A stretch of DNA of 64,000 nt from an uncultured Chloroflexia bacterium (GTDB lineage: Bacteria; Chloroflexota; Anaerolineae; CG2-30-64-16): the NCBI GenBank assembly GCA_963810095.1, contig CAWEMM010000006.1, positions 1,440,001 to 1,504,000 of the forward strand. Reading direction: 5' to 3'. A program made the translations under genes and the position numbers. The notes below the pieces were generated by a model. The model saw nothing but the letters and a program-made list of their open reading frames with translations, searched no databases and was not told where the DNA came from. Shown here piece by piece: positions 31,876 to 37,738 of the stretch; positions within the stretch are counted from its first letter, which is position 1; each line of letters starts with the position of its first letter.

Positions 31876-33279
31876 GTGACTGAACCGTGCGAAGACTGAA
31901 TCGCGCGGGCCCACAACATCCTGACGCGCACGTTCAGCCTGCGGCGCGACCAGAACCTGCTGATTTTCGCCGACGTCGCGTCGCTGGAAGTGGTGGAAGT
32001 GGTGGCGCGGGTGGCGCGCGAGCTCGGCATCAACGACGACCGCGTTTTTCGTGCCCGCGGGTGCTCCAGCTCGAGATGGGGCCTAACGAAAGCCTGCCGC
32101 TGCCTGCCGAGGCCGCGGTGCGTGAAGCCGACGCGATCCTGAGCTGCCTGTCCGACCAGCCAGAACACCTGCACTATCGGATGCGCGTGCTGCACGCCAG
32201 CTGGGGCCGGCGGGCGCAGGCTCGGCCCACGCGCCCGGCATGACGCTCGAGATCGCTGCAGCACGCATCGACACCGACTACGCGGCGATCAGCCGAGCAG
32301 GCCCAGCTGCTGAGCCTCGCGCTGATCCTGGGCAAGCGGGTCGAGATCGTCACGACGGACAGCCAGCGCCGCGAGCACCGGCTGAACGTGCGGGTCGGCG
32401 GCTGGGACTATCCGCCCGGCATCAACGACGGGACGATTCGCGAGGGCGCGTGGAGCAACCTGCCGCCCGGCGAAGTCTACATCGTGCCGCGCGATGGGGA
32501 CGGCCAGATCGTCGTCAACGGCTCGATTCCCGGCAAGGTGCTGGGGCCGGCGGAGGAGCTGATCCTGACTTTCCGCGAGGGCCGGTTGGTCGACGTGGAG
32601 CCGGAGGATGTGCCCGCCGCGCGTCATCTGCACGAGACGCAGATCGCCTACGCGGAGCGCCGCGGCGACACCAACTGGTCGAACCTGGCCGAGGTCGGCT
32701 TCGGGCTGAATCCCGCGGTGCAAGACCTGACCGGCCTGGGCGATCGTGGACGAGAAGAAGGCGCACACGGTTCATGTCGCGGTTGGGCACAGCGCCGGGC
32801 TGGGCGGCGACGTAGATTCGGTCATCCACTGCGACATGATCGCCAAGAAGCCGACTGTCTACGTCAACGGCCGGCTCGATCATGAAGCGGGGCGACTGGC
32901 GCATCAACGAGGCGGACTGGCGGCTGGATCACCGCACGGTGACGGTGCCGGTCGGCTGGTGGGAAAGCATGGGGCAGATTGGCGCGGAGCGGCGCCGCGC
33001 ACCGAGCGTGAGTCGGGCCGGCTGACATGCGTGTGGAATGCGGGCCGGGGCCGGTGGGACAGCGCGCCGGTTGGCGTGGAGCAGACGGCGCGCCTGGCCG
33101 CTCGCGGTGTACGACCTGCTGCCCGAGAACGGCGTCCCGGTGGGCAAGGCGCGCGTGGTCGCGCTGGCCGAGCAGGCCGGGCATCCCGTGCGAAGCGCTG
33201 CCGCGGCCTGTTCTGGATCATGCTTCAGTTCGACCTGGTCCGGATGTCGCGGCGCGGTGCCGAGCCAATGCCGACGTAG
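31876..33279 (+). CDS. M29 (AmpT/AmpS)-like metallo-aminopeptidase with a C-terminal extension (multiple frameshifts)
   Basis: RBS GGGGAG then GTG; motifs NLPPGEVY, NLAEVGFGLNP, DEKKAHTVHVAVG and IHCDMI. Confidence 0.7.
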
Positions 33280-33328
33280 ACCGGAGACGTCGAAGAACGA
33301 GGGGTCGTGGATAGCTGGGGAGAGCATC

Positions 33329-34882: not shown

Positions 34883-34884
34883 CA

Positions 34885-37738
34885 ATGAGCGCTAGCATCG
34901 AAGCCTGGCGGATCGTTCCCTACGAAGGAGGCGCATCGCCCGTTCAAGAAGGTGCGGGTGCGCGACGAGGCCGCGGGTGCGCGCGGTCGTGCGGCACCTG
35001 ATGAACGACGAGTGCGTCGCCTTGCTCGGTCCGCCCATGAGCGAGAAGAGCCACCTGCTGCGGGACGTGGCGGAGGCGCTGGAGCAGGGCGGTCGCTTCC
35101 GGCCGCTGCATATCGACTTGTGGCGCACACGATCGAACGATGAGGCCGCCTTCTTCACCAGCCTTGCCGAGTCTGCTGGCCGACGAGCTGCGGGACGCCG
35201 GCGCCGCGAGTCCCGACGAGCCGGCCGAGCACGCGCGGTTCCAGGGTTATCTCGCCGCTTGCGAATGCGAGCGGCCGCAGCCTTGCGCTGCTGATCGATC
35301 ACCTGCAGGCGCTGCCGCACGACCTCGTCCACAGCCTGCTGCGTCGCCCTGCGCGCGGCCTACATGGAGCGCGAGGCCGACGCGCCGCACAGCCTGGTCG
35401 CGGTGGTCACCGGCGGCATCAACCTCGTCGGTCTGTCCGTCCGGCCCGACCTCGCCGTTCAACATCGCCAAACCCGTGGTCGCGACACCGCTGACCCTCG
35501 AACAGAGCCGCGCGCTGGCCGAGGCGACGCTCAAGCGCTGGAGTGCTCGGCATCCGCCAACGGCATGGACCGCTTGCTGAGCCTGGGCGCAGGCGACCGG
35601 TACCTGATTCCGCGGCTCTGCGCCGACAGCTCCGAACTGGTCAGCTTGCACCGCCTGCACCGCGTGACGTCGGCCATTGCGGATCGCGCCGGCGCGGGCG
35701 CTCGTCGCCCGCGGACGCGGCCGCCGCCCGTTCGCGCCGCCATCCGCATGATCGAGGAAGACCCGGACACGGTGCTGGACGTGCTGCACCTGCTCGACCA
35801 CGGCTCGCTGCCGCGCTCACGCTCGCGCCAGATGCCGACGCGCACCGGCACGGACCGGCTGCAGCTCTCGGGCGCGGTGGTCCTGGTCGGATGGGTGCTA
35901 CGGCTTTATGAACGAGGCGTACCGCGAGGCGTTGGCCGCGCACTTCACCACCGACCGGGTCGGGCACATGTTGCGGATTGCCGGGCCGGTGGAGCGAGGC
36001 GATCGCCTATCTCGCGCCGCAGCGGGCGCGCGTCGCGCGTCCGCAGCTGCTCGAAGCCATCGTCCAGATCGATCTATGCGAGCTGACTCGTCCGAACAGG
36101 CGTATCGGGCTGCTGGCCGACGGCCTGCGGCTCGGCTTCGGCCTGTCGGACATCGGCATCTACTGCGGCGCTGCCGGCCGACTGCTCAGCTCGACCGCGT
36201 CTATCCGCCCAAGGACGGCGGCCCGAGGAGCACGTCGACCTGCGCGATCCCGGGTGCGTCGAGGCCCAGACCTTCAACCTGGGCAACTATGCGCTGCGCG
36301 GCACCGCGGATGAGGCGCGCCTGGTCGTCGCGCTGGCATCGGCCAGCCGGCCGCTCGGCGTCGTGACGATCGAACGCTATGTGCAGAACCGCGATCCGCA
36401 CGAGCTGCCCGACGAACTGCCCGACCTGCTGCGTTTCCTGCAGCACGCAGTCCGGGGCGCTGGAAAACGTCATCACTCGGGCTGCCTACCGCGCCATCGG
36501 ACAGGCCGTGCTGGATGCCAAGGCCATGCAGCCGACCGTGGAGCGGGTGCTCGAGACGGTAGCGGAGGCGCTTGGGCTGCGACTACGGCGCCCTGTATCT
36601 GCGGGATGAGACCGCCGCCAGCTGGAGATGGCCGCAGCAGTCGGCAGGGTGGTGACGGAGGAGTGGCAGGCGCAGGCGCGCTTTCCCCTCGACGGCCGAC
36701 ACCCCGCGGTCACCGCGCTGCTGGAGGGGCGGATGTTGACGGCGCGAGGGGGCGAGGACGCAGAGGACCGCGTGCTGCACGACCGTTTCGGCCTGCACCG
36801 CTACCTGCGCGTCTTCCTGCCTCTGCTCGCCGGCGGCGAACAGCTCGGCACGCTCGAACTGGGCTACGCGAGCCGGCCGCATGCGCATGTCGGATGAGCT
36901 ACAAGCGGACGCTGGTCGAGTTCGCCGACCAGGTGGCGATCGCGGTGCATAACATGCTGCTGCTGCGGCGGACGGACGAGGCGCTGGCACGCGCAAGCTG
37001 GCCGAGCTTGTCGGTGGGCCGCGAGATTCAGCTCAGCCTGCTGCCGAAGGTCACGCCGACCGTTCCCGGCTGGCAGTTCGCGGCCATGTACGAGGCCGCC
37101 CGCACCGTCGGCGGCGACTTCTACGACTTCTGCGAATTGCCGGGTCCGCCCGCATCGGCTGGGCGTCGTCATTGCCGATGTGGCGGACAAGGGCGTGCCG
37201 GCCGCGCTGTTCATGGCGGTCAGCCGGACGATCATTCGCAGCGTCGCGCTTCACCGGCCGCGGCCCGGCCGTCTGCCCTGATGCGAGCGAACCAACTGAT
37301 TCTCGCCGACAGCCAGGCCGACCTGTTCCTGAGCGCGATCTACCTGGTGCTCGAGACCGACAACGGGCGCGGATTTCGTTCAGCAACGCGGGGCACAACC
37401 GGCCGCTGCTGGTACCGCGCTGCGGACCGCGCAGCTCACGCGAGCTGACCCAGCGCGGCATCATCCTGGGCGCGTTCGACGAGATCACGCTGCAGGACGA
37501 CACGGCTGGACCTGGCCGCCGGCGACGTGCTGGTGCTGTACACGGACGGCGTCACGGACGCGCTCAACGCGGACGGGCGAGGAGTTCGGCGAGCAGCGCC
37601 TGTTCGACGTGGTGCGGGGCAGCGCCGCACGGCAGCGCGCAGGAGATCCTGTGGGCGATCACGGGCGCGCTGGCGGGCTTCATCGGCGACACGGAGCAGG
37701 CGGACGACGTGACCTGCGTCGTGATCAAGAAGGACTAG
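34885..37738 (+). CDS. Degenerate AAA_35/STAND-like domain + GAF domain(s) + SpoIIE/RsbU-type PP2C phosphatase (many frameshifts)
   Basis: N-term [23 protein letters not shown]-like '[14 protein letters not shown]...[11 protein letters not shown]'; PP2C motifs [28 protein letters not shown] and DDVT. Confidence 0.7.

Follow-up and report, generated by a model that had tools for sequence, protein, structure and literature searches.

The operon and its reading frames

The analyzed window, a stretch of 64,000 nucleotides from an uncultured Chloroflexia bacterium, carries three co-oriented genes on the forward strand: gene 1 (31876..33279), an accessory gene encoding an M29-fold metalloprotein with a C-terminal domain; gene 2 (33329..34882), a core gene encoding a STAND/ORC-like ATPase; and gene 3 (34885-37738), which encodes a pseudo-ATPase, GAF and PP2C. 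The gaps between them are short (49 nt between genes 1 and 2, 2 nt between genes 2 and 3), in agreement with a sequence-only reading of this DNA, and the motifs named there for all three genes are in place, distributed over three frames.

In the window, the reading frames of all three genes are broken. DNA alignment with L001, a syntenic intact locus whose ORFs for genes 1, 2 and 3 have 459, 512 and ~937 aa, identified 28, 12 and 48 frame-breaking gaps, respectively, the majority of them single-base insertions (+1). For the genes flanking the operon the rate is 5.6 to 39 gaps per kb, partly raised by alignment noise where genes diverge more. We infer that the frameshifts are read errors and not specific decay of the operon. 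Decay of the operon into a pseudogene cluster in this genome, as could be thought from the 88 gaps summed over the three genes and from two insertion sequences immediately downstream, seems very improbable, since +1 insertions predominate and also affect flanking housekeeping genes, and since the in-frame pieces are 75-100% identical to L001 across most segments. Because its ORF is intact in L001, gene 3 is one gene, as had been proposed, and not several.

The stop of an upstream GT4 glycosyltransferase gene (30854..31879, forward strand; NCBIfam matches of the L001 orthologue are below cutoff) overlaps the start of gene 1. This gene was found in 16 loci of one subclade, alongside tyrA/M50/tup synteny, and is probably co-transcribed with the operon in this lineage only, its membership being doubtful. 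It was weighed as a member because nSTAND2 systems (see below) have GT4 effectors, and was set aside as a fourth member, being restricted to one syntenic subclade. A promoter and terminator scan gave chance-level results; one sigma70-like site was found (30815-30844) versus 0.6 expected.

Gene 2 encodes a STAND ATPase

The gene 2 product consists of a ~145-aa family-specific N-terminal alpha/beta domain, a STAND/ORC-like ATPase, a helical domain and a winged helix, in this order, and its homologues have 512-513 aa. The previously noted Walker A (GIRRIGKTS, 33877-33900, forward strand), Walker B (FFLDEFD, 34145-34165, forward strand) and GxP (AGQP) motifs are intact in the window. Walker A is intact at 60 of 61 loci, the remaining one being cut by a contig end, and R294 is invariant (47 rows). 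Judged by its sequence, gene 2 encodes an active ATPase.

Fold searches covering residues 141-507 returned the archaeal ATPases 2qen (Z 21.2) and 2fna (Z 21.0), with an rmsd of about 4 Å over 312-319 residues, followed by folds including Cdc6/Orc1 (Z 17.5) and TnsC (Z 15.4). The ATPase-helical-wHTH core is common to gene 2 and the nSTAND1/archaeal ATPase group (ATPase_2; PAB2304, 2qen, and SSO1545, 2fna); the nSTAND1 profile scores 41.7 bits on L001 gene 2 (cutoff 27.1), a weak match over residues 13-228 of 379. Unlike this group, gene 2 has its own N-domain, lacks sensor repeats at the C-terminus and is paired with a pseudo-ATPase.

For the N-domain, we found no consistent Pfam family (37 members), a best E of 0.95 in the PDB profile search and one unnamed atlas cluster at 0.83, which is under the reliable range of the atlas; such missing matches, here as for the C-terminal domain of gene 1 (below), do not indicate a new fold. 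A profile of the N-domain retrieved 116 proteins among 1.84 billion representatives, and nearly all of the 40 aligned relatives of 430-700 aa, with 19-51% identity, have Walker A/B. Its elements follow the order alpha-beta-beta-beta-alpha-beta, which may resemble an inactive restriction-endonuclease fold (PD-(D/E)xK topology); no profile, atlas or structure match to that fold was found, the fold searches having covered residues 141-507.

Gene 3 joins an inherited pseudo-ATPase to an exchangeable output

The N-terminal part of gene 3 (34885..35990, forward strand) comprises a pseudo-ATPase paralogous to gene 2, a helical domain, a winged helix and the start of a TPR-like hairpin, TPR matches being weak (5 of 43 members). 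Its alignment with gene 2 by hhalign gives a probability of 97.4 and an E of 1.4e-11 over 329 columns. On the forward strand of the window both Walker A (GPPMSEKS, 35028-35051) and Walker B (LLIDHL, 35288-35305) are degenerate, and an invariant arginine lies in LRAAYM near 35352. The stretch retained in the window is [20 protein letters not shown].

Of the 52 complete rows, 51 no longer have the second (catalytic) acid of Walker B, while Walker A, over 52 rows, shows G>E in 27, the canonical form in 24 and another form in one; the LR arginine (R154) is kept in all 53 rows covering the position. The degeneracy suspected from the window is therefore real and inherited as regards Walker B, whereas Walker A is broken in the window's clade only. 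Given these 24 rows with a canonical Walker A, and the presence of both motifs in L054, some gene 3 copies may, going by their motifs, bind or hydrolyse nucleotide.

The middle of gene 3 (35990..37000, forward strand, boundaries approximate) contains two successive domains, the first GAF-like but degenerate and shared by both clades, the second a Pfam GAF domain (544-681 of L001 gene 3), followed by a helical linker; hhalign of the first domain against the second is weak, with probabilities of 0.8 to 29 in three comparisons. The output domain (37000..37738, forward strand) is a SpoIIE/RsbU-type PP2C with intact metal motifs (GGDFY, DVADKG, YTDG and DDVT); the SpoIIE domain scores 169 bits versus a cutoff of 25. 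Thus the window does contain both the GAF domain and the complete PP2C recognized from its sequence.

Over 61 loci, the output is PP2C (SpoIIE) at 39, a histidine kinase (HATPase_c) at 10 and cut by a contig end at 12; no other output type was found among the gene 3 loci examined. The C-terminal enzyme of gene 3 is exchangeable, either PP2C or histidine kinase. The PP2C metal motifs occur in the 39 loci, some of them cut by contig ends or frameshifts, and the His, Asp and HGDL..N motifs are kept in intact copies of the kinase loci. A receiver-TCAD9 kinase cluster lies downstream at all ten kinase loci, and a third STAND-like ATPase with an adjoining Band 7 gene is present at six of them. Ca. 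Amarolinea and Litorilinea are among the hosts of the kinase version. The earlier proposal that the ATPase pair controls a phosphatase fits the 39 PP2C loci, but at ten loci a histidine kinase stands in its place. The PP2C target is only assumed, because a STAS/anti-sigma pair adjoins the module at just one of the 61 loci (L043); a single-sequence search found no STAS gene in the window.

Distribution and conservation

The N-terminal module of gene 3 lies directly 3' of gene 2 at 55 of the 56 loci with downstream sequence, all from a little-studied group of Chloroflexota; at the remaining locus the two genes form a gene 2::gene 3 chimera. The conserved co-occurrence expected by the sequence-only reading thus holds for genes 2 and 3, which are the conserved core. 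It holds only in part for gene 1, which is located upstream in both deep clades but, in a locus scan keyed to gene 2 that counted gene 1 copies beside gene 2 only, was present at 34 and absent at 25 of 59 evaluable loci.

Genes 1, 2 and 3 split into the same two clades, and their pairwise identities correlate (rho 0.83-0.91), as is also expected from common host ancestry. In 10 of 11 comparisons with neighbours, gene 2 was the most conserved gene compared or at most 4 points from it. The flanks vary in one clade, and synteny is stable in the other. No order of the swaps between kinase and PP2C is claimed, because the gene 2 tree is a quick search (59 rows, L032 and L057 omitted) with a midpoint root and long branches. 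Plasmid and phage searches yielded no copy of the module; three plasmid matches to gene 2 are ATPase domains of unrelated proteins of > 2000 aa.

Gene 1 has an M29 fold and lacks the catalytic tyrosine

Gene 1 comprises an M29-fold part (about 31876-32900) and a C-terminal domain of ~110 aa (about 32930-33279), both on the forward strand. The M29 motifs NLPPGE, AEVG, DEKK..H and HCD described for it are present in the window. The structure model of the L001 orthologue (pLDDT 91.8) matches NicX (Z 29.4), AmpT (Z 22.4) and AmpS (Z 21.1); superposed on AmpT with an rmsd of 4.0 over 312 residues, it shows the two-domain fold common to AmpT/AmpS/PepS, NicX and the peptide-binding proteins CgnB/CgnE (Z 16-29). 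Pfam M29 is above cutoff in one of four full-length orthologues.

The metal site of gene 1 is of the E-E-E-H-H-D type. Among 95 homologues, E196 is kept in 90, E269 in 94, H296 in 95, H314 in 94 and D316 in 87, with the third metal Glu kept in 51, and the E, E, H, H and D of the EEHYHD motif are all found in the window gene. The catalytic Tyr, essential in LmAmpII as Tyr352 (PMC7023490), has no equivalent in gene 1, in contrast to the M29 aminopeptidases AmpT/AmpS/PepS: at positions 300-307, mapped via the spacing from the His and not by superposition, it occurs in none of the 95 database homologues, and a Tyr at 304 occurs in 2 of 31 locus copies. Fold and metal site thus bear out the assignment to M29, but the label of peptidase is weaker than first stated because this Tyr is missing. 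The ligand set equals that of the dinuclear zinc site of CgnB, which has the E-E-E-H-H-D site yet showed no aminopeptidase activity (PMC10070186). The dioxygenase NicX binds Fe through His265, Ser302, His318 and Asp320 (PMC7910607); in the alignment its His265 corresponds to Glu269 of gene 1, the last His and the Asp are kept, and the NicX-type ligand set as a whole is not found.

The C-terminal domain, which solved M29 proteins do not have, is winged-helix-like, with three strands, three helices and an end strand. Nothing matched it in searches of the atlas, PDB profiles, Pfam and viral folds, nor did the wHTH of gene 2 or gene 3. The element order in the full-length model presumably fits the pattern of PqqD and the RiPP recognition element (RRE), with three strands and three helices; profile searches of the domain gave no PqqD match, and HTH matches were weak and scattered.

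We tentatively regard gene 1 as an optional modulator that might bind or trim a peptide-like trigger via the M29 metal site. With the catalytic Tyr missing and the third metal Glu kept in 51 of 95 homologues, the earlier proposal that a peptidase supplies or removes the trigger is a hypothesis. The absence of gene 1 at 25 of the 59 evaluable loci (13 of these 25 form a supported subclade) would also agree with an ordinary metallo-hydrolase travelling as a passenger with no role in the switch. Such a passenger is considerably less likely, given that gene 1 immediately precedes gene 2 in both deep clades amid unrelated flanking genes, occurs with PP2C (22 loci) as well as histidine kinase (4 loci) outputs, follows the same clade split as genes 2 and 3 and carries a C-terminal domain missing from solved M29 proteins.

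A predicted two-subunit switch

Modelling agrees with the active/inactive ATPase heteromer proposed from the sequence. The gene 2/gene 3 complex scored 0.63 versus 0.00 for the best control and thereby passed. Of 157 solved pairs 116 attain the pass mark, as do 2 of 215 mismatched pairs, counts that are approximate for the alignments used here; the complex may also pass because it resembles ORC/Cdc6 or other AAA+ oligomers of solved structure. Contacts agree between runs to at least 85%, and partner pLDDT is at least 83. The modelled interface includes residues 184, 189 and 274 of gene 2 and residue 154 of gene 3; the invariant arginine of gene 3 faces the nucleotide site of gene 2, where it may act as a finger in trans, and the subunits contact each other most strongly at the ends of their winged-helix regions.

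Genes 2 and 3 probably constitute a two-subunit STAND-type switch controlling a phosphorylation output. A cytoplasmic trigger would change the nucleotide state of gene 2, the heteromer would then assemble or rearrange, and the change would be relayed by the TPR/GAF linker so that the output of gene 3 is switched. The PP2C type would then dephosphorylate a STAS anti-anti-sigma protein whose gene lies elsewhere, and the kinase type would transfer phosphate to the receiver-TCAD9 small-molecule kinase next to it. A more specific version is doubtful, namely that the module is an NLR-like sensor pair that signals rather than kills, in which an active and a pseudo STAND assemble in response to a peptide-type danger signal, via an M29-fold binding protein with a leader-peptide-recognition-like domain, and act on sigma-factor partner switching or a two-component kinase; if true, STAND hetero-oligomerisation would be a new input class for bacterial phosphorelays.

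An input of another kind, compatible with the two-subunit switch, is nucleic acid: an ORC/Cdc6- or TnsC-like heteromer would load on DNA via its winged helices and N-domain and report to the phosphorylation output, the DNA inputs proposed being ends, damage or foreign DNA. Cdc6/Orc1 and TnsC are among the nearest folds of gene 2, the N-domain may resemble the restriction-endonuclease fold, and Kaur et al. 2021 propose nucleic-acid binding by inactive STANDs. We nevertheless consider this input unlikely, as no profile or structure match to a nuclease fold was obtained (fold searches, residues 141-507), the winged-helix ends are occupied by the inter-subunit contact in the model, and an M29-fold accessory better suits a peptide or small-molecule input.

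Relation to known systems

The sequence-only reading did not recognize the combination as a named system, and the literature searched, mostly papers open without subscription, gave no description of the three genes together. The pairing of an active with an eroded STAND is, however, already described for the two-gene nSTAND2 system, for which a hetero-multimer is predicted (Kaur et al. 2021, PMC8195603). There, the first gene resembles gene 2 (N-domain of unknown function, active ATPase, wHTH), the second resembles gene 3 (eroded ATPase, wHTH, TPRs, variable C-terminal module), and both subunits have a conserved arginine, as do gene 2 (R294) and gene 3 (R154). Two adjacent STAND genes, a trait of nSTAND2, occur here at 55 of 56 evaluable loci, and the NTP motifs are likewise eroded in the effector-bearing copy (Walker B, 51 of 52). 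The nSTAND2 family (PF20702), searched in 43 gene 3 modules at E<=0.05, is not among the families listed (25 of 26) and has at most one match in the 43; gene 2 matches it weakly (25 of 47, best E 1.1e-6). The nSTAND2 effectors are mostly HEPN RNase or GT4, and the hosts in the rows examined are Proteobacteria and one Calditrichaeota, whereas here the outputs are GAF+PP2C or GAF+HK and the hosts Chloroflexota; further differences from nSTAND2 are the M29-fold accessory and the receiver-TCAD9 partner. A mobile operon acting against invaders is proposed for nSTAND2; for the module here, plasmid and phage searches yielded no copy, and its flanks vary in one clade. Family, hosts and outputs differ from nSTAND2, and the two-gene layout is the known one.

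The likeness could mean that the module is an nSTAND2-kind anti-invader system whose phosphatase or kinase is an effector arm triggering dormancy or death, for instance via the TCAD9 kinase. The anatomy is the same as the "??+STAND+wHTH -> nSTAND2+wHTH+TPRs+effector" of nSTAND2, the output is swapped between loci, the kinase partner bears TCAD9, a domain named for ternary conflict systems, the third ATPase and Band 7 gene accompany six of ten kinase loci, and L020 and L021 adjoin an Hma-like gene and a type IIG RM gene, respectively. We think this somewhat unlikely, since PADLOC gives only weak P-loop matches in 2 of 10 proteins (E about 1e-4 to 1e-3), unambiguous defence genes of full length adjoin the module at two loci (129 flanking proteins, counted without a background set), the module was not found on plasmids or phages, and the window's subclade shows high conservation with stable synteny. 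About nine further defence matches among the 129 flanking proteins are partial or to generic domains. We favour regulated signalling over arms-race defence because of the strong conservation, the few defence neighbours and the lack of plasmid or phage copies. The module looks like a derivative of conflict-type STAND pairs that has been retained as a stable stress-signalling unit.

To date, STAND pairs in which one subunit is eroded have been put forward as immune modules with a toxic end enzyme. Here the same chassis is joined, with strong conservation, to both of the main phosphorylation outputs of bacteria, and this suggests that an immune-like switch has been put to use in gene regulation. 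The module offers a compact test case, with a simple enzymatic readout, for the role of a pseudo-ATPase subunit (arginine finger in trans), and, in the Chloroflexota, whose signalling is poorly known, it gives an M29-fold protein and a TCAD9 kinase a place in a defined pathway.

On the output side, RsbU and RsbP are partner-switching phosphatases, and SWACOS-type proteins are STAND-GAF-histidine kinases that provide a precedent for a STAND ahead of GAF-HK outputs. Gene 3 shares GAF and PP2C with intact metal motifs with RsbU/RsbP. Unlike both groups, it has as its input an active ATPase encoded by a separate gene together with a pseudo-ATPase in the same protein, and unlike RsbU/RsbP there is no STAS or sigma gene within the operon. 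RsbQ, the RsbP partner offered as an analogy, is an alpha/beta hydrolase, whereas the accessory protein here has the M29 fold.

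Conservation of the operon among Chloroflexota

The three co-oriented genes with short gaps proposed in the sequence-only reading are present in the window: gene 1 (M29-fold protein, 31876-33279), gene 2 (active STAND-like ATPase, 33329-34882) and gene 3 (pseudo-ATPase with GAF and output domains, 34885-37738), separated by 49 and 2 nt. All motifs named in that reading were found, though distributed across three frames. Relative to L001, an intact locus syntenic with the window, genes 1, 2 and 3 contain 28, 12 and 48 frame-breaking gaps, respectively. Since these are mostly single-base insertions and the genes flanking the operon are broken in the same way, we infer long-read error. 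The analysis was built on L001 and other intact loci, because the ORFs are intact there (in L001, 459, 512 and about 937 aa); this also settles the earlier doubt whether gene 3 is a single gene.

A stop-free piece of the window gene 2 matched 122 relatives, mostly of 500-520 aa, and those bearing names were from Chloroflexota. An alignment of 37 gene 2 relatives led to 61 loci in the genomes of species representatives, all of which bear Chloroflexota titles; the locus counts are lower bounds, since the scan relied on two short patterns. Gene 2 is the last gene before the locus end in five loci. In 55 of the 56 loci extending past gene 2, the N-terminal module of gene 3 lies 3' of it, the exception being an in-frame gene 2::gene 3 chimera. 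Gene 1 is directly 5' of gene 2 in 34 of 59 judgeable loci (in two of these a contig end leaves it partial) and missing from 25, two of the 61 loci being undecidable. The expected co-occurrence holds for genes 2 and 3, with gene 1 as an accessory. Twenty-two loci have exactly the three-gene arrangement seen in the window. Genes 1, 2 and 3 show the same division into two clades, and gene 1 is present in both, flanked by unrelated genes.

The operon is a real, conserved Chloroflexota module. Its core is an active/pseudo STAND pair whose phosphorylation outputs are interchangeable, and an M29-fold protein is its optional partner. Binding within the pair is modelled, and we infer the control of the output, the target and the trigger.

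The chimera (L032:2999-4468) fuses the N-domain and ATPase core of gene 2 to the helical/wHTH part of gene 3 at a homologous point, with broken sequence downstream, and represents either a natural deletion or a misassembly. At two loci (L010:12182-12463 and L012:11736-12017) a small ORF, which we take from its motif to be GIY-YIG-like, is inserted between genes 2 and 3.

The active and the eroded ATPase

Of the 61 loci, 60 have an intact Walker A in gene 2, and the remaining one is truncated by the contig end. The predicted structure of gene 2 (pLDDT 84.9) is closest in fold to archaeal STAND-like ATPases (for 2qen, Z 21.2 and rmsd 4.0 over 319 aligned residues), and after these to a plant resistosome, Cdc6/Orc and TnsC. 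A confidently predicted alpha/beta domain without an assigned family makes up the N-terminal 145 aa; a search of 1.84 billion representatives with its profile gave 116 proteins, of which the long ones carry the same ATPase behind this domain.

The first 350 aa of gene 3 are paralogous to the ATPase, helical and winged-helix part of gene 2 (hhalign 97.4%). Both Walker motifs are covered by 52 of 55 rows. In these, Walker A has the form GxxxxEK[ST] in 27, is canonical in 24 and differs in one, and 51 have His, Pro or Asn in place of the second Walker B acid. The degeneracy noted earlier is thus inherited, with loss of the catalytic acid as its common feature and Walker A broken only in part of the rows. 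In the sole gene 3 keeping both motifs (L054:6423-9025), the output part is truncated by the contig end. The arginine equivalent to the invariant R294 of gene 2 is retained in 53 of 53 rows.

The predicted complex of gene 2 with the first 414 aa of gene 3, whose modelling the sequence-only reading had suggested, obtained a score of 0.63, the best of three controls having 0.00. This passes a mark that 116 of the 157 solved pairs and 2 of the 215 mismatched ones also attained, a calibration roughly applicable here. The runs share at least 85% of contacts, with partner pLDDT of at least 83. In the model, gene 3 residues 151-162 (including R154) and 183-194 share a contact set with the Walker A/B residues of gene 2, and gene 3 residues 307-318 lie against the C-terminal helices of gene 2. 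This supports, and does not show, binding; resemblance to solved AAA+ heteromers could be the source of the result.

Interchangeable outputs of gene 3

The N-module is followed by a weak signal for TPR, then by one degenerate GAF-like domain and by additional GAF domains (0 to 5 per protein by Pfam). The output is SpoIIE at 39 loci and a histidine kinase at ten, and is cut short at 12. A profile search with the N-module gave 217 longer proteins; among the 120 matches listed, 119 carry SpoIIE and one a kinase. One and the same gene cluster lies 3' of gene 3 in all ten histidine-kinase loci: Pfam identified a receiver and a TCAD9/APH kinase in each of the seven scanned copies that are intact, and just the receiver in the broken copy of L060; L038 and L050 were assigned by alignment. 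The intact copies retain the His of the kinase, the Asp of the receiver and the HGDL..N motif. Six of the ten (L013, L020, L021, L036, L046 and L050) have a third STAND-like ATPase with intact motifs beside a Band 7/SPFH gene (e.g. L020:16110-17964); in L013 it lies upstream, and in the remaining five loci it is convergent.

Near PP2C-type loci, free-standing GAF-histidine kinases occur on the opposite strand (L018:6141-10892 and L008:19092-21536), the one in L018 being accompanied by a receiver-TCAD9 gene of its own and by DUF4058. In the PP2C locus L043 (1759-10287) the pair is immediately preceded by an anti-sigma-like gene, so labelled from its sequence, a STAS gene and a second GAF-PP2C gene; this is the one locus presenting a candidate target. 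In-frame low-complexity insertions of variable length, possibly repeat elements, occupy one gene 3 site after the TPR hairpin in L004, L008, L011, L014-L018, L023 and L044.

The M29-fold protein

The predicted structure of gene 1 (pLDDT 91.8) has the M29 fold, matching NicX (Z 29.4), AmpT (22.4), AmpS (21.1), CgnE (17.8) and CgnB (16.0). The E-E-E-H-H-D metal set is present in the window and complete in 46 of 95 full-length homologues, the third Glu being kept in 51. A Tyr near the position of Y352, on which a Listeria M29 enzyme depends (PMC7023490), is absent from all 95. The six ligands are identical to the zinc ligands of CgnB, for which no aminopeptidase activity was detected (PMC10070186), and Glu replaces the NicX ligand His265 (PMC7910607). 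The label of M29 metallopeptidase thus stands for fold and metal ligands and fails for the catalytic Tyr; on these grounds gene 1 is a metal-binding protein of the M29 fold, which may cleave a peptide-like ligand or only bind it. The domain at its C terminus, of three strands and three helices, resembles a RiPP recognition element in the model, an identity that gained support from no search.

Relation to published systems

The module may be comparable to RsbQ/RsbP and SWACOS. No description of the present gene combination was found in searches of open-access papers. The closest likeness is nSTAND2 (Kaur et al. 2021, PMC8195603), a two-gene operon described as mobile, in which an active STAND precedes an eroded one; each has an arginine finger, and the eroded STAND is fused to HEPN or GT4. 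By analogy, our pair would work like nSTAND2, yet it is not a member, because gene 3 does not match the nSTAND2 profile and, as far as the compared parts of that source go, outputs and hosts differ: the nSTAND2 table rows compared include no PP2C or kinase output, whereas ours are PP2C or histidine kinase, and 'Chloroflex' first occurs in the supplement after that table. The effectors of ternary systems are reported to include APH-like kinases and receiver domains and no histidine kinases (Kaur et al. 2020, PMC7159879).

Stable signalling or defence

The anatomy of the operon, the swapping of outputs and the presence of TCAD9 indicate descent from conflict systems and would favor active defence. 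The conflict system suggested earlier found no backing among PADLOC models, which the operon proteins do not match save for weak P-loop hits; clear defence neighbours occur at two loci (129 flanking proteins, nearest two per side, one per cluster, without a background set), and none of 72,556 plasmids and 50,697 phages carries a copy. Gene 2 matches the neighbouring ABC permease in its degree of conservation. We rank stable signalling, a reasonably probable role, above active defence, which seems rather unlikely.

Surroundings in the window

The upstream synteny block common to relatives (22640-30768) contains ABC transporter genes, prephenate dehydrogenase, an HD protein, an M50 peptidase and a GH2 glycosidase, the profile scan covering GH2 only. 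It is followed by a GT4 gene whose end overlaps the gene 1 start, with a sigma70-like site upstream (30815-31879 together); GT4 is present in 16 related loci of one subclade. Downstream, a putative IS481-like transposase (37915-39057, one intact 380-aa ORF) and a frameshifted putative IS1182-like one (39109-40697) separate gene 3 from a lamin-tail-like gene, all three named by sequence reading; in L001 this gene adjoins gene 3.
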